Below are positions 1-16,367 of a DNA stretch of 64,000 nucleotides, piece by piece. The notes under the pieces were generated by a model, which saw nothing but the letters and a program-made list of their open reading frames with translations, did no database searches and was not told the DNA's origin. The position numbers were made by a program, and so were the translations under genes. The stretch lies in NCBI RefSeq assembly GCF_054482525.1, contig NZ_CM137006.1; one strand, written 5' to 3'. How positions within the stretch are numbered: the first letter of the stretch is position 1; each line of letters opens with the position of its first letter.

Positions 1-1
1 C

Positions 2-190
2 GCACAGCGTGCGCTTGACCAGTTCGGGACACCTGAACTCAAAGAATATCTGAACACCACCGGGCTGGGTAATCACCCTGATCTGGTCAAAACGTTCGTG
101 AAAATCGGAAAGGCGATGTCTGAAGATGGCATGGTCACCGGTGGTAATGAAGGCCAGCGTAGTGCGGCCGAAGTGCTCTATGGCAAATAA
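2..190 (+). CDS. Phage protein, 3' end only (possible scaffolding/head-assembly protein)
   Basis: Open frame from window start to TAA at 188-190, ending 15 nt before the putative capsid gene. Function inferred from position only. Confidence 0.35.
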   Translation, partial: AQRALDQFGTPELKEYLNTTGLGNHPDLVKTFVKIGKAMSEDGMVTGGNEGQRSAAEVLYGK

Positions 191-204
191 GAGAGGAAAT
201 GACA

Positions 205-1191
205 ATGGCTGTTAAAGGCTTAACTGCGCTAACGCTGGCTGACTGGGGTAAGCGCGTCGATCCAAACGGGAAAGTCGATAAGATTATCGAGCTTCTCGGT
301 CAAACTAACCCGATCCTTCAGGATATGCCTTTTGTCGAAGGGAACCTTCCTACCGGACACCGAACCACTATTCGTTCTGGTTTACCTTCAGCTACCTGGC
401 GTTTGCTGAACTATGGCGTACAGCCAAGCAAATCAACCACAGTGCAGGTAACCGATTCCGTTGGCATGCTGGAAACCTATGCGGAAGTCGATAAGTCACT
501 GGCTGATCTGAACGGCAATACCGCCGAATTCCGCCTGTCTGAAGACCGCGCATTTATTGAAGCGATGAATCAGCAGATGGCGCAGACGCTGTTTTATGGT
601 GATTCCAGCGTTAACCCTCAGCAGTTTATGGGACTGTCCTCCCGCTATTCCAGCCTGTCTGCGGGTAATGCTCAGAATATCATTGATGCTGGTGGCACGG
701 GTACAGATAACACCTCAATCTGGTTAGTGGTGTGGGGCGAAAACACCGTGCATGGCATCTTCCCGAAAGGGCAGAAGGCTGGCATCCAGATGGAAGATAA
801 AGGCCAGGTGACACTGGAAGATGCTAATGGCGGCAAGTACGAAGGCTATCGCACCCATTACAAATGGGATAACGGACTTGCTCTGCGTGACTGGCGTTAT
901 GTTGTTCGCATTGCAAACATCGATGTCAGCAATCTTTCAGAACCATCCTCTGCCGCAAATATTGCGAAGTTGATGGTTAAAGCACTACATCGCATTCCAA
1001 ACCGTGGCATGGGCCGCCCGGTGTTCTACATGAACCGCACTGTAGGCCAGGCTCTTGATCTGCAGTCTCTGGAGAAAACATCTCTGGCTATCAGCGTAAA
1101 AGAGACAGAAGGCGAGTGGTGGACTTCATTCCGTGGTGTACCAATCCGTGAAACTGATGCGCTTCTGGAAACAGAAGCCCGCGTGGTGTAA
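205..1191 (+). CDS. Putative major capsid protein
   Basis: ORF 199..1191; AGAGGA Shine-Dalgarno is best spaced for the second ATG at 205. Sits upstream of the Tphi-like terminator and the adaptor/nozzle-like genes, as T7 gene 10 does. No sequence-level family match could be confirmed. Confidence 0.5.
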   Translation: MAVKGLTALTLADWGKRVDPNGKVDKIIELLGQTNPILQDMPFVEGNLPTGHRTTIRSGLPSATWRLLNYGVQPSKSTTVQVTDSVGMLETYAEVDKSLADLNGNTAEFRLSEDRAFIEAMNQQMAQTLFYGDSSVNPQQFMGLSSRYSSLSAGNAQNIIDAGGTGTDNTSIWLVVWGENTVHGIFPKGQKAGIQMEDKGQVTLEDANGGKYEGYRTHYKWDNGLALRDWRYVVRIANIDVSNLSEPSSAANIAKLMVKALHRIPNRGMGRPVFYMNRTVGQALDLQSLEKTSLAISVKETEGEWWTSFRGVPIRETDALLETEARVV

Positions 1192-1242
1192 CGCCTGTTA
1201 TTAACCTGTGGGTCGTAACAGACCCACTAATGGAGAAAGAAG

Positions 1243-1680
1243 ATGATCACCGACAAACTGTTGATGTTCTCCGAAGCTCAGGCGGTTACGAATACCGCGG
1301 CTTCTACTGACGTAATCGATCTCGGTCCAATTGACGGAAAACGTCGTGATATCGGCGTGGGTTACCCGCTTGAGTTTTGGGTGCTGGTTAACGCAGCCGC
1401 CGCAGCAAGCGGTGATGCAACTGTAAACATCCAGTTGCAGACGAGTGAGAATAACACCTCATGGACCACTATTTATGATAGTGGCGCACTGGTAAAGACC
1501 GCCCTGACAGCAGGTAAACGAGTTGTTTCTGCAAAGGTGCCTGCCGGTGTTCAGCGATATCTGCGTGTTAACTACTCCGTCGCAACTGGCCCACTAACGG
1601 CTGGCGAATTCACTGCTGGTATCAGTCTTGATGTTGATGCCAATACGCCGTATCCGATCCGCTCAAAAGTAACTGGTTAA
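1243..1680 (+). CDS. Hypothetical virion protein, 145 aa (possible head decoration/accessory)
   Basis: ORF with GGAGAAAG Shine-Dalgarno; co-oriented and tightly packed after the capsid gene. Confidence 0.4.
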   Translation: MITDKLLMFSEAQAVTNTAASTDVIDLGPIDGKRRDIGVGYPLEFWVLVNAAAAASGDATVNIQLQTSENNTSWTTIYDSGALVKTALTAGKRVVSAKVPAGVQRYLRVNYSVATGPLTAGEFTAGISLDVDANTPYPIRSKVTG

Positions 1681-1690
1681 GGTGATATCG

Positions 1691-2026
1691 ATGTCAGGTG
1701 AGAAACCAAGATACCGCGTTCTGCGCCTCTCTCATATCCATAACACTCTGTGGCCGGAGGGGGCAGAAATCGAATACGAAGGTGAGCCTGGTAGCGCACT
1801 GGAACCTGTTAACGATGCAGCCAGACAGGCAAAAGCAAAAGTTGCAGGAAAGGTGTCAATGGCAGCAACCAGCACCAAAATCATCAACGATGTGTCAGAT
1901 GATGGTGAACTGGATAAGCTCCGTGAAGAGTACGAATTGCTCTTTAACGAGAAGCCACACCATAACGCCAAAGCTGAAACGCTCCGCGAGAAGATCGCAG
2001 ATAAGCGTAAAGAACTGGGCGTGTAA
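1691..2026 (+). CDS. Hypothetical phage protein, ~111 aa
   Basis: ORF 1682..2026 in the track; first ATG at 1691. Followed directly by a strong intrinsic terminator. Confidence 0.4.
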   Translation: MSGEKPRYRVLRLSHIHNTLWPEGAEIEYEGEPGSALEPVNDAARQAKAKVAGKVSMAATSTKIINDVSDDGELDKLREEYELLFNEKPHHNAKAETLREKIADKRKELGV

Positions 2027-2042
2027 GCCTCGCGAATCAGAC

Positions 2043-2064
2043 AAGGGGCTTCGGCCCCTTTATT
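2043..2064 (+). terminator. Rho-independent terminator after the capsid gene group (T7 Tphi-like position)
   Basis: aaGGGGCttcgGCCCCtttatt: GC stem, 4-nt loop, T-run. Confidence 0.65.
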
Positions 2065-2076
2065 GCAGGAGTGTAT

Positions 2077-2400
2077 ATGGAACTCGTAAACCTCAAAACC
2101 GGCACTGACAGCTACCAGGATGAGAGCGGAGAAACCAGAACTCGTGATGAATACCCGTGGGGGCTGTGCATCACTCTTAATAACGACACATTGAATAAGC
2201 TGAAGGCGCAACCTAAGGGCGTCGGAACGGAAGTGATGATAACTGCAAAGGCTGTTATTCGAGGCCTGTCTGCCAGAGAAACTGACGATGGCGTTAATCG
2301 CAGCGCCGATCTGCAGATCACTGATATGGCGATCGCTCCTGTTTCCGGGGATGTAGAAAAATCAGCGGCTGAAACTCTGTACGGTAACGGAGGTGAGTGA
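2077..2400 (+). CDS. Hypothetical phage protein, ~107 aa
   Basis: ORF 2071..2400; stop overlaps the next start as TGATG. Confidence 0.4.
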   Translation: MELVNLKTGTDSYQDESGETRTRDEYPWGLCITLNNDTLNKLKAQPKGVGTEVMITAKAVIRGLSARETDDGVNRSADLQITDMAIAPVSGDVEKSAAETLYGNGGE

Positions 2401-3005
2401 TGGCCTCTGTAGTAGAGATCTGTAATCGTGCGCTGTCCAATATTGGCAACAGCCGCAGCATTAACAGCCTGACGGAAGCCAGCAAGGAAGCGGGGGAATG
2501 TTCGCTGCACTTTGAGGCCTGCCGTGATGCTGTGCTTTCTGATTTTGACTGGAACTTTGCTACCAAACGCGTGGCGCTTGCAGATACGAGCAATCCACCG
2601 CCTGACTGGGAATATGCGTACCAGTACCCGTCAGATTGTCTGCGCATTACTGAAATTATGCTTCCTGGTGTACGCAATCCAACAGCAGCAATGCGCGTTC
2701 AGTACGAAGTTGGTGCAGACACCAACGGAACAGGAAAGTTGATCTACACAGACCAGCCTCAGGCATGGCTCAAGTATGTCTCTCGCGTTACAGATGTGAA
2801 CATGTTTGATGCCATTTTTATGGAGGCGTTGGCCTGGCGTCTTGCGGCAGCTATTAACATGGCGCTGACTGGGAATGCAGACCTCGGTACGTTTGCCCTC
2901 AATATGTACAATCGCGTGATTCTTAGTGCTGGCTCGCATAGCCAGAATGAATCACAGGAACCACAGCCACCGGTTGACGAGTTTACCATTGCGAGGTTGT
3001 CCTGA
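2400..3005 (+). CDS. Putative head-tail adaptor / tail tubular protein A-like, 201 aa
   Basis: GGAGGT Shine-Dalgarno; ~200-aa gene immediately before an ~800-aa gene with overlapping stop/start, mirroring T7 gp11/gp12. Assignment is by position and size. Confidence 0.4.
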   Translation: MASVVEICNRALSNIGNSRSINSLTEASKEAGECSLHFEACRDAVLSDFDWNFATKRVALADTSNPPPDWEYAYQYPSDCLRITEIMLPGVRNPTAAMRVQYEVGADTNGTGKLIYTDQPQAWLKYVSRVTDVNMFDAIFMEALAWRLAAAINMALTGNADLGTFALNMYNRVILSAGSHSQNESQEPQPPVDEFTIARLS

Positions 3006-5476
3006 TGGCTATCAGTTGGATCCAGCCCAGCTTTGCCGGTGGTGAGATTGGACCGTCGTTGTACGGACGTATCGACATGGCGAAGTACCAGGTGGCATTG
3101 CGCAAGTGCGATAACTTTATCGTGCGGCAGTATGGCGGCGTTGAGAATCGACCTGGTACGCGTTTTGTCGGTGCCGCCAAATACCCAAATCGGAAATGCC
3201 GCCTGATCCCGTTCCAGTTCTCGACGGTTCAGACCTATGCTCTGGAGTTCGGACACCAGTACATGCGCGTTATCAAAGATGGTGCGTTGGTGCTGAACAG
3301 CAGCAATGTTATTTATGAAATTGCCACGCCATATACTGAAGCCGATCTGTTCCGAATTAAATTTACGCAAAGCGCCGACGTGCTTACGCTGGTTCACCCG
3401 GCATACCCGCCGAAAGAGTTGCGCCGCTATGCGCATGACAACTGGCAACTGGTTGATGTGGTAACGAAGAACGGGCCATTTGAAGATATCAATATTGACG
3501 AGTCAGTGACGGTTTATGCCAGCGCCAGCACTGGGACAATTACGTTAACGGCAAGCGCCTCTATTTTTGGCGCGGAGCAGGTAGGCAAATTGTTCTATCT
3601 GGAACAGCCTGCAGTGGATTCTGTGCCGGTATGGGAAACCAGTAAGAGTACGTCGATTGGCGATATTCGCCGTGCAGACAGTAACTACTATCGCGCCGTT
3701 ACAGCAGGAAAAACAGGCACTTTGCGCCCTTCGCATACAGAAGGCACATCATGGGATGGCTGGGGCGGATCCGGTGATGATGATACTGGCATTGAGTGGG
3801 AGTATCTGCACAGTGGTTTTGGCATTGCCCGTATAACTGCTGTAAATGGCACTACTGCAACTGCTGAGGTGATTTCCTATATCCCTTCGCAGGTCGTTGG
3901 CGAGGATAATGCCAGCTATAAATGGGCTAAATATGCCTGGAACAGTGTTAATGGTTATCCTGGCACTGTTGTTTATTATCAACAACGTCTTTACTTCGCC
4001 GCATCGACTGCGTTCCCTCAGACTATCTGGGCCAGCCGTACTGGGGATTATAAGGATTTTGGCAAAAGCAATCCTACGCAGGATGACGACAGAATTATCT
4101 ACACCTATGCCGGGCGTCAGGTTAATGAGATCCGCCACCTGATTGATGTTGGTTCGCTGGTGGCGCTGACTTCCGGAGGTGAGTATGTCATCACCGGCGA
4201 CCAGAACAAAGTGTTAACCCCATCATCATTTGCATTCAGCTCTCAGGGATCAAATGGCTCAAGCAACGTCCCGCCAATTGCCGTGGCGAATATTGCTTTG
4301 TTCGTCCAGGAGAAAGGCAGTGTTGTACGTGATCTGGCCTACTCATTCGATGTTGACGGCTATCAGGGGAACGACCTGACCATCCTTGCCAATCATCTTT
4401 TTCAGAAGCACAGCATTGTTGACTGGTGCTTCTCGATTGTCCCTTACTCCAGCGCCTTCTGCATTCGTGATGACGGTAAATTGCTGGTGATGACCTATTT
4501 GCGTGATCAGCAGGTTTTTGCATGGGCACCACAATCCAGTACCGGGAAATATGAAAGCACATGCAGTATCAGCGAAGGCAATGAAGATGCGGTGTATTTC
4601 GTCGTTAACCGAACCGTTAACGGGCAAACAGTGAGATACATAGAGCGACTGTCCAGCCGTTTATTTACCAGCGATGAAGATGCTTTCTTTGTTGATTCTG
4701 GCCTTAGCTATGATGGAAGAAATACGTCTGACAGAACGATGACCATCACTGGTGGTTCTGGTGAATGGGATTACCGCGCGGAATATACAATCAGTATTTC
4801 TGGTGGTGCGTACTTCACCAGTAGTGATGTCGGTGCGCAACTACAATTCCCTTATACCGGAACTGATCCTGATACTGGCGATGAAGTGTCAAAAGAATTA
4901 CGTTGCGACATTATTTCTGTAACCAGCAATACCGCTGTAGTGGTTCGTCCTAACAGGAACGTCCCATCATCCCTCAGGAATGTGGCCACCACGAACTGGC
5001 AGATGGCGCGCCGGACATTTGGAGGCCTGTCTCATCTTGAAGGCCAGATCGTAAACATTCTCTCTGATGCGAACGTGGAACCACAGAAAGTTGTTTCCGG
5101 AGGTGCCGTCACGCTGGAATCTCCGGGGGCTGTAGTGCACATCGGCCTGCCAATAACTGCTGAATTCGAAACACTGGATATCAACATTAGCGGACAGGAA
5201 ACGCTGCTGGACAAAAAACAGGTGATCCCGTCCGTTACTCTGGTTGTGAATGCCAGTCGCGGCATCTGGGCGACTACGCCCGGCGGTAAATGGTACGAAT
5301 ATCCACAGCGTGAATTCGAGTTCTACGATGATCCTGTTGATGATGCTACCGGAAAAGTAGAAGTGAAACTGGACAGTAACTGGGGCAAAAACGGGCGTGT
5401 AAAAATCCGTCAGCTTGACCCGTTGCCGCTGTCTGTTCTTGCCGTTATTCCTCGCCTTACTGTTGGGGGAGTCTGA
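3005..5476 (+). CDS. Putative tail tubular protein B / nozzle-like protein, 823 aa
   Basis: TGATG overlap with the upstream gene; size and position match T7 gp12. N-terminus is Gly/Pro-rich. Confidence 0.45.
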   Translation: MAISWIQPSFAGGEIGPSLYGRIDMAKYQVALRKCDNFIVRQYGGVENRPGTRFVGAAKYPNRKCRLIPFQFSTVQTYALEFGHQYMRVIKDGALVLNSSNVIYEIATPYTEADLFRIKFTQSADVLTLVHPAYPPKELRRYAHDNWQLVDVVTKNGPFEDINIDESVTVYASASTGTITLTASASIFGAEQVGKLFYLEQPAVDSVPVWETSKSTSIGDIRRADSNYYRAVTAGKTGTLRPSHTEGTSWDGWGGSGDDDTGIEWEYLHSGFGIARITAVNGTTATAEVISYIPSQVVGEDNASYKWAKYAWNSVNGYPGTVVYYQQRLYFAASTAFPQTIWASRTGDYKDFGKSNPTQDDDRIIYTYAGRQVNEIRHLIDVGSLVALTSGGEYVITGDQNKVLTPSSFAFSSQGSNGSSNVPPIAVANIALFVQEKGSVVRDLAYSFDVDGYQGNDLTILANHLFQKHSIVDWCFSIVPYSSAFCIRDDGKLLVMTYLRDQQVFAWAPQSSTGKYESTCSISEGNEDAVYFVVNRTVNGQTVRYIERLSSRLFTSDEDAFFVDSGLSYDGRNTSDRTMTITGGSGEWDYRAEYTISISGGAYFTSSDVGAQLQFPYTGTDPDTGDEVSKELRCDIISVTSNTAVVVRPNRNVPSSLRNVATTNWQMARRTFGGLSHLEGQIVNILSDANVEPQKVVSGGAVTLESPGAVVHIGLPITAEFETLDINISGQETLLDKKQVIPSVTLVVNASRGIWATTPGGKWYEYPQREFEFYDDPVDDATGKVEVKLDSNWGKNGRVKIRQLDPLPLSVLAVIPRLTVGGV

Positions 5477-5940
5477 TGATCGATGTTCAAATTATTCCCG
5501 CTACCGAAGAGCATCTTCAGATGATTTTGCCGGATGTTCGTCAGGCTGATATTGACGAACTGTATGCGGTATCGCTGATGACTACCGAAGATGCGCTGCG
5601 CGTTGGTCTTCGCACTGCGACTATGGCCTGGTCAGGGTTCGCGAACGGAGAACTGGTAACCATGTTTGGTGTATCTCCGGCGTCAATGATCGGTGGCAAT
5701 GGTACGCCCTGGCTGGTAGGAACCAGCCGTATTGAAAAATATCAGAAGACATTTCTGCGCCACTGCCGCCCTGTATTGCAGCAGATGCTGGCAGTTTATC
5801 CGCGCCTGGAAAACTACGTCGACGAGCGAAACCATGTTGCCAAAGCATGGCTGCACTGGCTTGGATTCAGGCTTGAAGAAGCCGCGCCTTATGGTGCTCT
5901 TGGTCTTAATTTCCACAGATTTCACATGGAGAGAAAATAA
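5476..5940 (+). CDS. Putative internal virion protein, 154 aa
   Basis: Start overlaps the upstream stop; lies in the internal-protein block between nozzle-like gene and tailspike. Confidence 0.35.
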   Translation: MIDVQIIPATEEHLQMILPDVRQADIDELYAVSLMTTEDALRVGLRTATMAWSGFANGELVTMFGVSPASMIGGNGTPWLVGTSRIEKYQKTFLRHCRPVLQQMLAVYPRLENYVDERNHVAKAWLHWLGFRLEEAAPYGALGLNFHRFHMERK

Positions 5941-6485
5941 TGTGCGATCCGGTTATTGCTGGTGGCGCAATGCTCGCCATGAGTGGCATTCAGGCATACA
6001 CCCAGTACCAACAGGGAAAGTATGCCTCGAAGGTTGCAGAAGCGAACGCAGATATAGCCACAGCTCAGGCAAATGATGCAATAAACAGAGGTAACGCTGA
6101 AGCTGAGCAACGACGCAGAGAGACCCGACAGCGGCTTGGTACACAGGCGGCGACAATGGGGGCTACCGGCGCTGATTTATCTACAGGTAACGCGCTGGAT
6201 ATATTTGGCGACACTGCCCAGTTTGGCGCTCTTGATTCGCTGACGACGGTGAATAACGCGCAACGCGAGGCTTACGGTTATCAGGTTCAGGCTGCCAACT
6301 ATAAAGCAGAAGCCAGTTCAGCCCGTAAACAGGGGAATGTGGGAGCAGCAACAACATTGCTCACTGCGCCTCTGAAGGCATACGGTGCCTACCAGATGTT
6401 TGGTGGGACGTGGAGTCCGTTTACTCAAAGTACTCCTGCACCAATCGGGGCAGCAGCAGGAACCAGATTACCCGGAGGATTATAA
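5940..6485 (+). CDS. Putative internal virion protein, 181 aa, Ala/Gly/Gln-rich
   Basis: TAATG overlap with upstream gene; low-complexity helical composition typical of ejection proteins. Confidence 0.35.
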   Translation: MCDPVIAGGAMLAMSGIQAYTQYQQGKYASKVAEANADIATAQANDAINRGNAEAEQRRRETRQRLGTQAATMGATGADLSTGNALDIFGDTAQFGALDSLTTVNNAQREAYGYQVQAANYKAEASSARKQGNVGAATTLLTAPLKAYGAYQMFGGTWSPFTQSTPAPIGAAAGTRLPGGL

Positions 6486-8998
6486 TGCCAGTCGTACCAA
6501 CAGTATCCGGACGTCAGGTTGAGAGCCGTGGAGTTCAGTCAGCAGGCTTGCAGACGTTTTCTCAGCCAGGTATTGGTGATGCTTTTGTTCGGGCAGGGGC
6601 AGAGGCTATTGATGTTTTTGGTCAGGCAAAACAGCGTGCCAATATCGCTCTGGCTCAGGAGGCATCTCTTAACCTCAGTCAGATAAGCAGTGATCTGCTG
6701 AATAATCCTGAAACAGGATTGCTTAACCTGAAAGGGAAAAATGCTATTGGAAAAGGCCATGAGTATACGCAGCAGTTTGATGCTCAGGTCGAACAACTGG
6801 CTATGTCGCTGCCGGATGAACAGGCTCGTAATGCTTTCATGCAGCAGGCGCAGCAGCAGCGCATTCAGTTCACTACGCAGGCAGGGCGGCACGAGATAGG
6901 GCAAATAAATGCCTACGAAGAAGGCCAGTTTCAGGCTACGCTGCTGAACAATGGTAAAAATGCCGCAGCATTGTATGGCGACAACGCCGCATACGTATTG
7001 GCTAATAAGCAAACTTTCCAGCAAATTGAGGATTACGGCATTGCACATGGCTGGAGTGACGAGCAAATCCAGGCCAAGAAAATCGAGTTTAAAGAAGCAA
7101 CAGCAAAAGCAACTGCTCAAAATGCTATTGGAGCAAACTATCTTCAGGTAAGACAGCAAAACGGCGAGTTAAGCGATACTGCTGCTGGATCTCGCCGTGC
7201 TGTAGCAGATAGTGGCTCTTTCGATCGTACCCGCGGTATACGCAACAATAACCCCGGCAATCTTGAATACAGCAAAACTAATCCGTGGGTTGGGCAGACA
7301 GGTGATGATGGTCGCTTTGCTAAATTCGAAACACCTGAACACGGTATTCGTGCATTAGGGCGGAACCTGATGTCGTATCAGCGGCAGGGTATTGATACCG
7401 TCAGCGAGATAATTAATCGCTGGGCACCGCCCACTGATAAAAATGACACAATGTCGTATATCAAAGCAGTGTGCGAACAACTTGGCGTTTCTGCTGATGA
7501 GTCTCTCGATGCATCTAATCCGGATACCCTGAAGGCGCTTTGTGCAGCCATTATCCATCATGAAAACGGTAGCCAGCCATACAGTGATCAGCAGTTAACT
7601 GATGGTGTTAGTGCTGCGCTGGGGCTTTCTCAGCTACCGACAAAAAATAAACGTTATACCGGTGTAGCTTGGTTCGATGCTTTAAGTGAATCAGATCAGG
7701 CCAGCGTGTTGCGACAGACTGATGCACTAGCCAGACAACAGCAGGCTGAATATAAAACGATGCTCGACAGCCGGGTTCGCGATGCGACGGCTGCGTATAT
7801 GCGTGGCGTTGAATTTCCTAACCCACCTGGTGAGGATGATTTTATTGCAGCTTATGGAGTCAGAGAAGGAAACCTGCGATATACCGAGTTTAAGAATACG
7901 CAGATCGCCGGACAGTATATAGGCTCTTTCCGCAACATGCCGACAAGCAGCATTACAGCATATGTTGAGCAATTACGCCCGGATACTGGTGATACAGGGG
8001 AGGGGTATGCGGCACGCGCAGCTCTTTATGACAACGTTGTTTCGGCTGCAAATCAGGTGATAAAGCAGCGGCAGTCGGATCCTGTGCAGTTCTCTCTTGC
8101 CTCCGGACAGGCAAAGCCTATCGACATGAGCAATAAGGATAACTTTGGACAGAGCGTTGCCTTGCGTGCCGCTCAGGTCAGTGACCTTGCTAAGTCATAT
8201 GGCACTCCACTGACGTTCTTTTCCAAAGACGAGGCCAATCAGATCGGTGTTTTCTTTCGTGATGCTCCAGTTTCCCAACAGGCAGCATATCTCGATACCA
8301 TCAGGCAGAGCACTGGTGGTGGGCAGGTGTATATGTCAGCACTACAGCAGATCAGTGCCAACGCTCCATCTGCTGCCGTTGCCGGGATACTGATGGATAA
8401 GCCTGGTGGTATTTTGGCAGAAAAAAACTGGTTTAATCCGGATGTTTCCGTGTCTCCTGAAACCGCTGCGCAGACAATTCTTGCTGGCGCGGCGGCTCGT
8501 AAAGGTACTGATGATGCGAAAGGTATTCCGATGCCTAAAGATGCTGATCTTCGCCTTGAGTTTTCTGACATGGTGAAGGATGCATTTGCTGGTGACGCTC
8601 AGGGGGCATCAATGGCATACGAGATCGCAAAGGATTATTACGCTGGTGTGATGGCGAAAAAAGGCGTGGTATCAGGCGAAATTGACAATGATGTCTGGAA
8701 ACAGGCTGTTAACGTAGCTACAGGTGGCGTGCATGACTATAACGGAATGGGGAATGTCCTTTTGCCGTGGGGAATGTCTGCAGAGCAATTCGATAAGCAG
8801 GTTAATCAGGCTTGGAATGAACAAGTTGTCGGCTCTGGGATAAAAACACCGCCTGGTCAGTATGGTTTGCAAAGTTACGGCGATAGTCAGTACCTGGTGA
8901 AACTTGGTACTGGTTATCTGCTGAAAGATGATGGTTCTCCCGTTGTTCTTAATCTGACACAGAAGCGTCAGAGATTCTCCGGAGATATTCCGCAATGA
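6485..8998 (+). CDS. Putative internal virion/ejection protein, 837 aa, with a conserved central block
   Basis: Track ORF 6410..8998; ATG at 6485 overlaps the upstream stop (TAATG). Central block GIRNNNPGNL...RWAPP...HHENG looks like a globular domain. Confidence 0.4.
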   Translation: MPVVPTVSGRQVESRGVQSAGLQTFSQPGIGDAFVRAGAEAIDVFGQAKQRANIALAQEASLNLSQISSDLLNNPETGLLNLKGKNAIGKGHEYTQQFDAQVEQLAMSLPDEQARNAFMQQAQQQRIQFTTQAGRHEIGQINAYEEGQFQATLLNNGKNAAALYGDNAAYVLANKQTFQQIEDYGIAHGWSDEQIQAKKIEFKEATAKATAQNAIGANYLQVRQQNGELSDTAAGSRRAVADSGSFDRTRGIRNNNPGNLEYSKTNPWVGQTGDDGRFAKFETPEHGIRALGRNLMSYQRQGIDTVSEIINRWAPPTDKNDTMSYIKAVCEQLGVSADESLDASNPDTLKALCAAIIHHENGSQPYSDQQLTDGVSAALGLSQLPTKNKRYTGVAWFDALSESDQASVLRQTDALARQQQAEYKTMLDSRVRDATAAYMRGVEFPNPPGEDDFIAAYGVREGNLRYTEFKNTQIAGQYIGSFRNMPTSSITAYVEQLRPDTGDTGEGYAARAALYDNVVSAANQVIKQRQSDPVQFSLASGQAKPIDMSNKDNFGQSVALRAAQVSDLAKSYGTPLTFFSKDEANQIGVFFRDAPVSQQAAYLDTIRQSTGGGQVYMSALQQISANAPSAAVAGILMDKPGGILAEKNWFNPDVSVSPETAAQTILAGAAARKGTDDAKGIPMPKDADLRLEFSDMVKDAFAGDAQGASMAYEIAKDYYAGVMAKKGVVSGEIDNDVWKQAVNVATGGVHDYNGMGNVLLPWGMSAEQFDKQVNQAWNEQVVGSGIKTPPGQYGLQSYGDSQYLVKLGTGYLLKDDGSPVVLNLTQKRQRFSGDIPQ

Positions 8999-13769: not shown

Positions 13770-13800
13770 CATGTCACAGGCCGCTTTCGCGGCCTTGTTT

Positions 13801-13962
13801 TTAACGAATGCCACCGCCGCCCGGACGGGAATCCGCAGAACGCCCACCGCAGCGGGAGCCGTCAGCGGCAGTATCGCTGTCGTGCTGACAACGACCGGCA
13901 AAGGCCTGAGTTGAAGCTACCAGAGACAACAAAACGAACAGTGCAGCAAATGCTTTTTTCAT
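13801..13962 (-). CDS. Small protein with canonical Sec signal peptide, 53 aa; antisense-overlaps an alternative + strand 47-aa ORF (13771..13914)
   Basis: MKKAFAALFVLLSLVASTQAFA then a Gly/Arg/Asp-rich 31-residue tail with two Cys. Upstream TTGACG-16nt-TATAGA promoter-like element. Only one of the two overlapping ORFs is likely real. Confidence 0.3.
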   Translation of the reverse strand: MKKAFAALFVLLSLVASTQAFAGRCQHDSDTAADGSRCGGRSADSRPGGGGIR

Positions 13963-14035
13963 TGTGAAATTTCCATCTATAAGCCACCTCAATGTGGCGT
14001 CAATGAGTGTAGCACTGACTTTTGTTTCGTCCACA

Positions 14036-14058
14036 AAAAATCCCGCAGCGCGGGCTTA
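14036..14058 (-). terminator. Intrinsic terminator downstream of the toxin-like gene
   Basis: Minus strand reads aagCCCGCgctGCGGGattttttg. Confidence 0.5.
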
Positions 14059-14601
14059 TTCCTTCCATTTATCAGAAAAAAGATCTTCTTCTAAAGGCAT
14101 TGGTTCTGTTTTTGTTTTCTCAAAGAATTGATAACTGATAGTGATTGCTGCCTCTTTAAACTCTTCTTGCTCAGTTATGTTGTGGGCATCTGCGTCAACA
14201 AAAAACATAACCAGCGCATCACGATTGTGATTTACCGAATAAACTAAAAAGCAATTACTTGTTGGTATGCATTTTACTTGCACAGACGCTATTTTTTTCC
14301 ATGCATCCCAAGATGATTTTTTACCAGTGTGTTTTTTATCACTATCTTCTGGAATATAGTCTTGGTTATCGACATGAGTATGCCTGACATTTAGTTTAAG
14401 CATTTCTGTCGGACGAGCAAATGCAGCATCTTTACCAAGAGATGGATGGTATCCCGTTTTCCAATACTGGGTAAAGGCATCAGATACTTTCTTCAGCTCA
14501 AGATCAGATGCACAAAGGGCCGAGAAATTTTGCGTATGCAATACTCGACCCTTATATCTGACAATTTGATTTTTATCATTCTGCGACGCAGACGAACTCA
14601 T
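14056..14601 (-). CDS. Hypothetical toxin-like accessory protein, 181 aa (tentative resemblance to YafO-family toxins; unverified)
   Basis: Track ORF 14056..14628; ATG at 14601 with AAGGAA Shine-Dalgarno. AT-rich, opposite strand to virion genes. Motifs YHPSLGKDAAFARP and VRHTHV recalled as YafO-like, from memory only. Confidence 0.5.
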   Translation of the reverse strand: MSSSASQNDKNQIVRYKGRVLHTQNFSALCASDLELKKVSDAFTQYWKTGYHPSLGKDAAFARPTEMLKLNVRHTHVDNQDYIPEDSDKKHTGKKSSWDAWKKIASVQVKCIPTSNCFLVYSVNHNRDALVMFFVDADAHNITEQEEFKEAAITISYQFFEKTKTEPMPLEEDLFSDKWKE

Positions 14602-14755
14602 AATTTTCCTTATTGTTACGAGAATCAAAGAAAGCGCGGGATACGCGACTTGCGTGATCTTTTGTCATAGTAACTTTTACGCACTCTACGCTTCCATTGA
14701 AAGAACGTCTTGCGGCAGCTTGCGCTCTACGCATCTGCAATTTTTCGTTTCGCAT
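14576..14755 (-). CDS. Small basic ORF, 59 aa, overlapping the start of the toxin-like gene (candidate antitoxin/regulator)
   Basis: Hand translation: MRNEKLQMRRAQAAARRSFNGSVECVKVTMTKDHASRVSRAFFDSRNNKENYEFVCVAE. GAGGT Shine-Dalgarno 6 nt upstream; 26-nt overlap with the downstream gene. Not in ORF track (<60 aa). Confidence 0.25.
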   Translation of the reverse strand: MRNEKLQMRRAQAAARRSFNGSVECVKVTMTKDHASRVSRAFFDSRNNKENYEFVCVAE

Positions 14756-14902
14756 GACATTACCTCATATCTCATAAGTTCATTACACGGATTAATAAAA
14801 ATGAAACCAATCCGTTTACCCTTGAGGTAATAGTACGCTATTCACCCACAGTCTGCAATCTGTACAGAATTATTTAAAGGCACATCCCTGTGCCGCCGCC
14901 CG

Positions 14903-15598
14903 TCAGAAGAACCCTGCCTTGTCGTTGATGTACTCCGCGTGCGTCTGGATATCACGCAGGCATTTGCTCACACCGACGATGTAGCAGAACATGGTGGTCA
15001 GCTCCGCCGCCGCGCCCGATACGTCGTGCCCGTCGTCCTGTAACTGGTTCAGCAGATTCATCAGCAGTGAGTTCTCCGTCAGGCCGAGAACACCAGACGG
15101 CGAATGAATCAGGCTGCGGTAGCCGGGCTTCAGTGGGGCACTGTAGGTTTTGTTCTCTATCTTCATCGCCTGCATCACTGCTGATGCTGTGGCGTTGGCT
15201 ACCTGGTCGGCAACCATCTTTATGCGCTCTTCCTGCGGGAGCGAGTTTTTAATGTAACTTCCGGTGCGGCGGATCTGAGGAAGAACCTCACCTGTAACCC
15301 ATTTACGAAAGCGGTATGGGATAGTGCCTGGTGTCACTGCGTCGCGGCAGCGGAGGATCAGTGTGTAGAGGCCTGACTCGGAGATGATGATCGATTCTTG
15401 CTCACCGCCAGGGGTGTCGGTTGAAGCGACGCCCTTCTCATCATCATCAAGTTTTCGAACAGCATCTCGATGGTTTGCTATGCCTATAGCCCGACAAACA
15501 TCTGAAGCGATAAACCATGGCTCACCATTAATGACGATTACTCGTATATCGGCTTGGGATTCGAAAGAAAAAATGGACGTGCTTTTTGTAGCTGTCAT
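14903..15598 (-). CDS. Bro-N (KilA-N-like) domain protein, antirepressor-like, 231 aa
   Basis: N-terminal pattern F.F...IRV....GEPWF.A.DVC...G......A...LDDDEK...T.GG.Q...ISESGLY.LI.R......FR.WVT.EVLP.IRRTG matches Bro-N; AAAAGG Shine-Dalgarno. Confidence 0.7.
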   Translation of the reverse strand: MTATKSTSIFSFESQADIRVIVINGEPWFIASDVCRAIGIANHRDAVRKLDDDEKGVASTDTPGGEQESIIISESGLYTLILRCRDAVTPGTIPYRFRKWVTGEVLPQIRRTGSYIKNSLPQEERIKMVADQVANATASAVMQAMKIENKTYSAPLKPGYRSLIHSPSGVLGLTENSLLMNLLNQLQDDGHDVSGAAAELTTMFCYIVGVSKCLRDIQTHAEYINDKAGFF

Positions 15599-15913
15599 AG
15601 TGGTTACCTTTTAGTCTGGTTAATCACCACTACCGACGCCAATCGGTTGGTGGTGAGCTGTGCAGGGTTGGCGTAACCGGCTAAAAGGACCCGGCGCACC
15701 TTTCGGTGCCCCCACACAGCCCACCATAATACGAATGTGGCCGTGCTATACGCATAAAAAAACCGCTTGCGCGGTGAATGCGCCTTTTAGTAATCCGGGA
15801 CGCCAATCCCGGCACTGGATTTTGCCAGTGCCCGATTACTATGGCACAAGAGGAGTGCGATGTAAATTTACCGCAAAGGTAAATATAAGCACTTCATTTG
15901 GTAATTGCAAACC

Positions 15914-16171
15914 TTATCTGGTTTGTTTTCGTAATTGTTCGGCACAATAGTCGAGATGTGTTTGCAGATCCTGCATAGACATCTGTGAGCTGGTGACGTA
16001 GTTAATCAGTGCAGTCAGTTCGGCAAGTGGGCCATCGACATTAAATCCATCCTTATCTAGATCCCGGAGTAATTTCATCAAGTGCGATCCCTCCACCAGT
16101 GACTTGACGCCTCCCGGCGTGTGAATCCTTTCGGTAAATCCGTCTTCCAGTGGATAGTGATACTGCTGCAT
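15914..16171 (-). CDS. Small protein, 85 aa, paralog of the C-terminal domain of the adjacent Bro-N protein
   Basis: HTPGGVKSLVEGSHLMKLLRDLDKDGFNVDGPLAELTAL...LQTHLDY aligns with HSPSGVLGLTENSLLMNLLNQLQDDGHDVSGAAAELTTM...IQTHAEY of the 231-aa protein. Second ATG (16171) has a GGAG Shine-Dalgarno; track start is 16186. Confidence 0.55.
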   Translation of the reverse strand: MQQYHYPLEDGFTERIHTPGGVKSLVEGSHLMKLLRDLDKDGFNVDGPLAELTALINYVTSSQMSMQDLQTHLDYCAEQLRKQTR

Positions 16172-16193
16172 CTTAATCTTCTCCATGCAATAA

Positions 16194-16209
16194 CTGTATA
16201 TTTATACAG
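16194..16209 (-). promoter_or_regulatory. LexA (SOS) box upstream of the 85-90 aa gene / Bro-N gene pair
   Basis: CTGTATATTTATACAG fits CTGT-N8-ACAG with an AT-rich centre; TTGATA -35-like hexamer abuts it on the coding strand. Confidence 0.65.
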
Positions 16210-16367
16210 TATCAAATAATTTGTTTGCTATCCAGCACGTTTTGCAAATTACCTAAAAGGTAATATCTATTTATATTCACAGTATTTCTATCCATATGTG
16301 GTTTTTCAGGTAATAGAATAACCAGATATGCGGCGCAACGGGTGCTGCGACTATCTGGAGATTTAAC

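Follow-up and report, generated by a model that had tools for sequence, protein, structure and literature searches.

A likely Rep-type operator and a probably incidental palindrome at the promoter of a YafO-like gene pair in a phiV10/epsilon15-type prophage

We consider the promoter of a pair of genes, encoding a 59-amino-acid (aa) protein and a 181-aa YafO-like protein, in a 64,000-nucleotide (nt) stretch of contig NZ_CM137006.1 (the window, here always the whole stretch), the first ~23 kb of which are part of a phiV10/epsilon15-type (Uetakevirus) prophage. A preliminary description of this DNA had proposed that a perfect 10-base-pair (bp) palindrome upstream of the pair, TCTGTACAGA, is its operator. 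Our preferred reading, to which we give a probability of about 0.75, is that the pair is driven by a cargo promoter under the control of the prophage repressor Rep, and that the palindrome is incidental. The likely operator of this promoter is the inverted repeat TTACC-N5-GGTAA at 14816-14830, judging from its match to the sites annotated as repressor-binding in epsilon15. The existence of an operator at this promoter, as had been proposed, is therefore supported, but the conserved repeat is found on the other side of the core promoter, about 30 bp from the palindrome and just outside the region (14840-14902) to which attention had been drawn. The elements of the promoter region are the following.

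14576..14755, minus strand: open reading frame (ORF) of 59 aa, phrog_6685, overlapping the 181-aa gene by 26 nt; possible antitoxin-like partner
14056..14601, minus strand: gene of the 181-aa YafO-like protein (Pfam YafO_toxin, 23.4 bits, E 6.6e-5)
14853..14858, minus strand: -35 hexamer TTGCAG; ATTG is invariant in an 11-sequence alignment and TTGnnn is kept in 30 variants
14830..14835, minus strand: -10 hexamer TACTAT, the final T of which is the first T of the operator
14816..14830, no strand: likely operator TTACCCTTGAGGTAA (minus strand ATTACCTCAAGGGTAAA), of the epsilon15/SPC32H type, covering -7 to about +8
14859..14868, no strand: palindrome TCTGTACAGA; against the other promoter lineages it has the look of a 9-bp indel
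14879..14894, minus strand: hairpin GGCACA-GGGA-TGTGCC followed by TTTAAATAATT, weakly terminator-like, after the Bro-N stop codon

The promoter, TTGCAG-17 nt-TACTAT, agrees with the sigma-70 consensus at 7/12 positions and is missed by a simple promoter scan. For comparison, the gene pair was gathered from Salmonella, Hafnia, Lelliottia, Serratia, Kosakonia, Pectobacterium and many viral contigs, and the upstream regions were aligned. All the aligned lineages have a -35 TTGnnn and a -10 hexamer that are 17-18 nt apart, while the sequence of the spacer is divergent; the -35 reads TTGACG, TTGCAA, TTGGCT or TTGCGT at the same distance in the other lineages, and the -10 takes the forms TAATAT, TACTAT, CAAAAT, CAGAAT and TAAGAT. 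Because this geometry is kept across lineages as a phylogenetic footprint, the predicted promoter is supported, and the earlier promoter call stands despite its 7/12 score. An alternative promoter on the minus strand (TTGGTT-17-TGTAAT, about 14785-14813, 8/12) was rejected as the main promoter, for it is not conserved in the other lineages.

The next question is which of the two inverted repeats is kept together with the promoter. Among 30 distinct upstream variants, TTACC-N5-GGTAA is present in 30/30 and the palindrome in 20/30; counted by promoter lineage, the palindrome is present in about 3/14, namely the E. coli, Salmonella and Lelliottia types. Exact matches to the operator are found at all 42 loci first collected. 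The arms of the repeat are invariant, its N5 centre is variable, and its position is immediately 3' of the -10. What is kept in all the lineages with a 59-60-aa small protein is the hairpin, the TTGnnn, a free spacer of 17-18 nt, and the -10 with TTACC-N5-GGTAA. In the window the repeat reads ATTACC-TCAAG-GGTAA on the minus strand and starts on the last base of the -10; over 14815-14831 the minus strand is ATTACCTCAAGGGTAAA, with an exact 15-bp core and 16/17 positions matching ATTACC-N5-GGTAAT.

The repeat is not confined to this promoter. When up to one mismatch is allowed, TTACCNNNNNGGTAA occurs 9 times in the window where 1.0 is expected, and 0/100 shuffles have as many. Its three exact copies (at 14816, 15868 and 16249) all fall within 1.45 kb (14.8-16.3 kb), the second and third being the following.

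15868..15882, no strand: Rep-type operator site B, abutting the -10 of a promoter TTGCAA-17-TATATT (15882-15910, minus strand) that leads into the c4/isrK RNA and Bro-N genes
16249..16263, no strand: Rep-type operator site C, between the Ant and tailspike genes, upstream of Ant

An imperfect copy with one mismatch is also seen at 16481-16495, inside the start of the tailspike gene. The epsilon15 site that is homologous to site C (19895-19911) is annotated as repressor-binding, and the GenBank record of epsilon15 labels seven ATTACC-N5-GGTAAT sites 'protein_bind, repressor, lysogeny'. The complete phage TL-2011b has 14 copies of the motif (0.85 expected): pairs flank the helix-turn-helix (HTH) repressor gene, and others precede the replication-region genes and the terminase gene or fall in the Ant/Bro-N region. 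The same map, with copies flanking the Rep gene, is seen in phiV10, in SPC32H and in the EC332 prophage of E. coli (L131), which is 100% identical to the window over positions 1-8000 and is located at guaA beside the same chromosomal genes. The related phages phiV10, TL-2011b, SPC32H and EC332 carry 10-15 copies each against about 1 expected. The register of the repeat is shared as well: like the promoter in the window, the PL-type promoters of TL-2011b, phiV10, epsilon15 and SPC32H (TTGACA-17-AATCAT, AATTAT or GATTAT, with 10/12 consensus positions) have a -10 whose final T also opens the repeat. The repressor of TL-2011b matches the structure of SPC32H Rep (5D50_A, E 7e-42), and both TL-2011b and EC332 encode Rep, an HTH protein of 194 aa. 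Rep occupies palindromic DNA in the form of a tetramer, which the Ant tetramer splits into dimers (PMC9638917). In the close relative ZX5, lytic transcription is blocked by ORF21, which does not differ from the repressor of phiV10; the functional paper on ZX5 gives no definition of the operator (PMC9782041). From the repeat's sequence, conservation, distribution and register with the -10, together with the Rep/Ant homology and the LexA box before Ant (see below), all of which are directly seen, we infer the binding of Rep.

EC332 further allows the promoter and its cargo to be separated. After the shared Bro-N gene and hairpin, this prophage has an unrelated cassette of a 55-aa and a 146-aa gene (L131 34055-34800). 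The region upstream of this cassette reads AAAATAATCATTGGCGATGTGATGTAGATTCGCGTAATAT followed directly by TACCTTAAAGGTAA, with TCTGTACAGA absent, and the cassette promoter, TTGGCG..TAATAT followed by TACCTTAAAGGTAA, makes up a promoter-operator unit as in the window. Because an unrelated cargo has the same unit, the unit belongs to the phage slot and not to the YafO-like cargo, and the arrangement in EC332 indicates that the unit would work without the palindrome. The comparison shows that the phiV10/epsilon15-type prophages possess a standard slot behind Bro-N (hairpin, promoter, Rep operator), in which unrelated two-gene cassettes are swapped.

What, then, can be said of the palindrome? The sequence confirms that TCTGTACAGA is a perfect 10-bp palindrome (plus strand 14859-14868) and that it stands where it was described, 34 nt past the Bro-N stop codon on the minus strand, with TTGCAG directly 3' of it and both ORFs of the pair downstream. 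It spans about -45 to -36 of the predicted promoter, i.e., it is upstream of the -35. The CTG(C/T)A half-sites that had been pointed out are present (CTGCA at 14854-14858 and CTGTA at 14860-14864), but the first merely complements the -35 hexamer. The remark that the palindrome does not fit the LexA spacing is correct: in place of CTGT-N8-ACAG it has CTGT-N0-ACAG, and the closest approach to a LexA box is CTGC-N7-ACAG. On visual inspection the spacing is wrong and the half-sites are poor for LexA or CRP, and both readings of the region were rejected; an RNA reading was rejected on the z-score of the fold (z = -1.1, not significant).

The proposal that the palindrome is an operator is not supported: it is missing or broken in most lineages, is present at chance frequency, and does not co-vary with the 59-aa protein. 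Perfect 10-bp palindromes number 42 in the window, where 62.5 are expected for independent, identically distributed bases and 62 +/- 7.7 are found in mononucleotide shuffles; by our own arithmetic, about 0.13 would be expected in the 147-bp intergenic region. The exact word TCTGTACAGA occurs once in the window. With up to one mismatch there are 3 matches against 1.06 expected (7/100 shuffles have as many), the other two of which fall outside the prophage. A role in a phage-wide regulon was rejected, as the promoter regions of the complete phages TL-2011b, phiV10, epsilon15 and SPC32H contain no further copies. A 1-bp deletion, TCTGTAC-GA, breaks the palindrome in three phage contigs of E. coli, tabulated as six loci, and leaves the rest unchanged. 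On the minus strand of the window an A/T-rich stretch is found upstream of the palindrome; in other lineages this stretch is directly at the -35 (AATAATC-ATTGACG or ATTGGCG), and for this reason TCTGTACAG behaves as a 9-bp indel. The small proteins P0002 and that of L115 are one residue apart, and the palindrome is found with one and not with the other; the palindrome therefore does not co-vary with its putative binder. We conclude that TCTGTACAGA is real in the sequence but probably has no role as a control site. Most probably it is incidental, a 9-bp indel that separates the A/T-rich stretch from the -35 and to which no specific protein binds, and its effect may at most be to displace the A/T-rich, UP-like stretch relative to the -35.

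Several points weigh against the preferred reading. The Rep gene would be positioned upstream of the start of the window, and so outside it. The identity of the operator is presumed from the GenBank annotation and the distribution of the sites. TTACC-N5-GGTAA is also kept by the pair where no Rep-type regulon is seen within 10 kb, i.e., in Kosakonia (L089, CP158850.1), in a lambdoid-like contig (L128) and in Pectobacterium (L090), a retention that is unexpected if Rep is the sole binder. Finally, TTCTGTACAGATTGCAG is identical at 17/17 positions among the E. coli, Salmonella and Lelliottia versions while 10/17 bases of the spacer differ, and this identity could reflect constraint instead of a mosaic boundary.

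The retention of the repeat brings up an alternative, that the 59-aa protein, in addition to Rep or in its place, binds TTACC-N5-GGTAA, so that the repeat would serve the autoregulation of the module and only resemble or exploit the Rep operator. In type II toxin-antitoxin operons, autoregulation normally acts at palindromes that overlap the promoter, the pair takes the repeat along into the three contexts named above (no Rep regulon detectable in 10 kb on each side), and in the most divergent pair (L085/L086, with a 63-aa small protein) another repeat, TGACG-N4-CGTCA, takes the same position abutting the -10 (L085 2714-2727, L086 2779-2792). The unrelated cargo of EC332, however, shares both promoter and operator, and more than 10 Rep sites at other places in these phages have the identical motif. 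Because a homologue of an epsilon15-type virion protein is encoded in L090, and an HTH protein distantly like Rep in L128, these 'foreign' contexts are not cleanly Rep-free. The 59-aa protein itself has no recognisable DNA-binding fold in its structure model: the AlphaFold model has a predicted local distance difference test (pLDDT) score of 70 (moderate), and Foldseek gives no PDB match below E = 5. No match to the Phd/YefM (YafN-type) or any other DNA-binding family was found in Pfam or NCBIfam; NCBIfam and PADLOC give no match of any kind, and Pfam gives only a weak sub-threshold one (DUF6955, E 0.038). We regard this alternative as unlikely.

A second alternative keeps the palindrome as a genuine site at about -41, where either a host factor would bind or the pair would regulate itself, through the 59-aa protein or the 59/181 complex. 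The palindrome does adjoin the -35, it is perfectly kept in the E. coli, Salmonella and Lelliottia lineages while the promoter spacer diverges, and its TGTACA core is the hexamer bound by the antitoxin YefM (PMC1802561). Other palindromes are found at or near the -35 elsewhere, since TGACG-N4-CGTCA overlaps the -35 in L040, L122, L087 and L128. On the other hand, most of the lineages that keep both proteins, at 57-83% identity, do not have the palindrome, and close relatives have it with the 1-bp deletion; its chance-level frequency and its lack of co-variation with the 59-aa protein have been given above, as has the lack of a DNA-binding family or fold match for this candidate binder. The operators of YefM, moreover, are paired boxes over the -10, while the palindrome is one TGTACA box upstream of the -35. 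A functional palindrome at this position is thus improbable.

It may also be considered that two control layers act together, i.e., a Rep-type repeat at the -10, perhaps bound by the 59-aa protein, and, at the -35 or beside it, a palindrome that is specific to the lineage. TCTGTACAGA would then be one allele of a variable second operator, with TGACG-N4-CGTCA as the allele elsewhere. The latter, which is absent from the window, is found upstream of the pair in several lineages and phage types, and in the most divergent pairs it replaces the Rep-type repeat; its arms are constant, and its centre is GTGC, GACC, GGGT, TTAT or CTAT. If the 59-aa protein did bind Rep-type operators, a toxin-antitoxin-like module would be linked directly to phage immunity. 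We hold such an arrangement to be doubtful.

That the inverted repeats act as RNA, in the form of 5'-terminal hairpins that stabilise or regulate the mRNA, is very improbable: a 5'-end hairpin is predicted in 9/9 folded lineages (often with the GGGTAA arm paired to a downstream TTACCC), but most of these folds have insignificant z-scores, transcription would leave out the 5' arm since the -10 ends on the first base of the repeat and the start is expected inside it, near 14823-14824 on the minus strand of the window, the motif is also intergenic in both orientations and flanks the Rep gene, and the palindrome, being upstream of the -35, is outside the transcript.

We return to the Rep-repressed cargo promoter and to how it may work. 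In the lysogen, Rep bound at 14816-14830 (-7 to +8) would block RNA polymerase or the start site and keep the gene pair silent. Upon DNA damage, LexA would leave its box before the small Ant gene, so that Ant is made; Ant would disassemble the Rep tetramers, and all the Rep-controlled promoters would open, among them that of the 59-aa/181-aa pair and that of the c4/isrK-Bro-N unit (15882-15910, with its operator at 15868-15882). The hairpin at 14879-14894 may limit read-through from the Bro-N unit. The prediction is that the YafO-like pair is off in the lysogen and on with induction, and the timing of its expression bears on whether it is a toxin-antitoxin system that protects the lysogen or has a function in the lytic phase. 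The earlier guess of annotation is corrected in that this toxin-like cargo is most likely controlled from the operator of the prophage repressor, not from the palindrome. As it stands, the finding matters little. It is an ordinary one because the likely operator has its match in related phages of the epsilon15 type, at sites with an annotation of repressor binding; the motif as such is on record in the annotation of epsilon15, and the only new point is that the Bro-N unit and the swappable cargo slot each carry one.

Some further features of the promoter region can be described. The stem of the 14879-14894 hairpin is kept across lineages with a compensatory change of A:T to G:C (GGCAC..GTGCC vs GGCGC..GCGCC). 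The hairpin is present in the minimum-energy fold, and its tail TTTAAATAATT is too short for the T-run rule of the terminator scan. In an E. coli phage variant (L023/L046), a 7-bp deletion in the spacer (TTGCA------- followed by GGTGAATAGCGTACTAT) puts TTGCAG out of register and moves TGTACA to roughly the -35 position, and in L117 (= L072) four tandem 7-bp units (TTGCGCA) are found upstream of the pair's promoter at about 3560-3600. The ribosome-binding site (RBS) and start codon of the 59-aa gene (14753-14769, minus strand, TATGAGGTAATGTCATG) are within a short inverted repeat, which is CATGAGGTGATGTCATG in most lineages and has the left arm TATGA in the window; it is predicted to pair and is nearly invariant. 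A larger hairpin is found further upstream in the 5' leader (14779-14815 of the window). The fold z-scores of both are not significant, and an exact-pattern scan of the genome contigs for the conserved RBS/start sequence gave zero matches.

We turn to the two proteins. The 59-aa ORF, which has no PGAP annotation, is conserved and forms its own small, Enterobacterales-wide family; an ORF of 59-63 aa precedes the toxin-like gene in every context examined, overlapping it and always co-inherited with it. The 181-aa protein is below the Pfam cut-off for YafO_toxin (23.4 vs 25 bits). All of its aligned relatives (19/19) match this family at E <= 0.01, the best at 6e-6, and RefSeq names it a YafO family toxin. 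The pair is mobile and is seen in various contexts (L089, L090, L128, L085/L086). It separates the lysis genes from the terminase genes in a sheathed-tail prophage, and it is further found next to a primase in a podovirus-like element, in a lambdoid-like contig, and within a siphovirus tail-gene cluster.

In the surrounding prophage, the region is 94-98% identical to TL-2011b, phiV10 and their Uetakevirus (epsilon15-like) relatives and is carried by several hundred E. coli genomes; the genes at the locus are all on the minus strand. The neighbours of the gene pair are the following.

14903..15598, minus strand: Bro-N antirepressor gene (Pfam Bro-N, E 2e-21)
15646-15731, minus strand: c4 antisense RNA (Rfam RF01695, 79 bits, cut-off 45)
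15756-15831, minus strand: isrK-like Hfq-binding RNA (Rfam RF01394, 78 bits, cut-off 50)
15792-15844, minus strand: c4 a1/b1 targets (Rfam RF03163, 45.1 bits, just below the cut-off of 46.7)
15914..16186, minus strand: 90-aa small antirepressor, homologous to the Ant protein of SPC32H (PDB 5D50 chain E, E 1.3e-46)
16194..16209, no strand: LexA box of canonical form, CTGT-N8-ACAG (minus strand TACTGTATAAATATACAGTT), shortly before the Ant gene

The LexA box before Ant is conserved in five phages, and its place is the same in SPC32H, epsilon15, phiV10 and TL-2011b. Because the c4, isrK-like and a1/b1 matches (15646-15844) are all between the Ant and Bro-N genes, the Bro-N antirepressor seems to sit in a P1-immI-like, RNA-controlled unit. 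ORF4 of ZX5, which is related to the Bro-N protein of the window, acts as an antirepressor and promotes the lytic cycle when overexpressed (PMC9782041). Relative to phiV10 (L002 2466-2500), the window has an insertion of about 1.1 kb (about 13806-14890) downstream of the Bro-N gene. It contains a 77-aa gene, the 181-aa and 59-aa genes, and the upstream region with the palindrome and the hairpin, and it has the end of the Bro-N gene on one side and a bidirectional terminator, AGGCCGCTTTCGCGGCCT (13778-13795), on the other; the right junction with phiV10 (about 14890) is inside the 14879-14894 hairpin. The 77-aa ORF (13801-14034, minus strand, downstream of the YafO-like gene) has a signal-peptide-like N-terminus; PGAP calls a 53-aa version of it, its PHROG label is 'moron, membrane associated protein', and a bidirectional hairpin is found next to it at 14042-14054.

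It remains to compare the locus with known systems. In the dinB-yafN-yafO-yafP operon of E. coli, the toxin YafO, a protein of about 130 aa, is under LexA control. In the window a YafO-like protein would likewise be tied, ultimately, to the SOS response. The link would be indirect, however, from LexA to Ant to Rep to the promoter, and there is no LexA box at the promoter of the pair; the partner is a 59-aa protein unrelated to YafN, and the YafO-like protein, in contrast to E. coli YafO, has 181 aa and is below the Pfam cut-off. The YefM-YoeB operators are paired TGTACA boxes, 12 bp from centre to centre, that cover the -10 (PMC1802561). The palindrome is like YefM-YoeB and Axe-Txe in having a TGTACA core next to a toxin-like gene pair. 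It differs from them in having a single box (14861-14866; by our own reading, 1/6 and 4/6 positions agree in the hexamers at a distance of 12 bp), in being upstream of the -35, in going without a Phd/YefM-type antitoxin, and in not being conserved with the pair.

The closer likenesses are with phage immunity systems. C1 of phage P1 exerts its control through dispersed operators. As in the immI region of P1 and P7, with its C1-controlled operator, c4 antisense RNA and icd-ant, a likely master-repressor operator is found in the window on the promoter of an operon in which a c4-type antisense RNA comes first and an antirepressor follows, and the operators are dispersed over the genome. The repressor family and the operator sequence are different, the background in the window is that of a podovirus, and the LexA-controlled small Ant is an addition that is not part of P1 immI. 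With the Rep/Ant switch of the Salmonella phage SPC32H and of epsilon15 (gp38 being the repressor of the latter), the window shares the operator motif, its position at the -10, its dispersal over the genome, a homologous Ant with a LexA box, a homologous Rep in the sister phages, and the synteny of virion protein, Ant and tailspike. At this locus SPC32H and epsilon15 carry the Ant gene alone, and the window has in addition the c4/isrK RNA-Bro-N unit and the YafO-like cargo, each with its own Rep-type operator. By its sequence features, the system is the Rep/Ant switch of the epsilon15-like phages combined with a P1-immI-like unit of c4 RNA and antirepressor.

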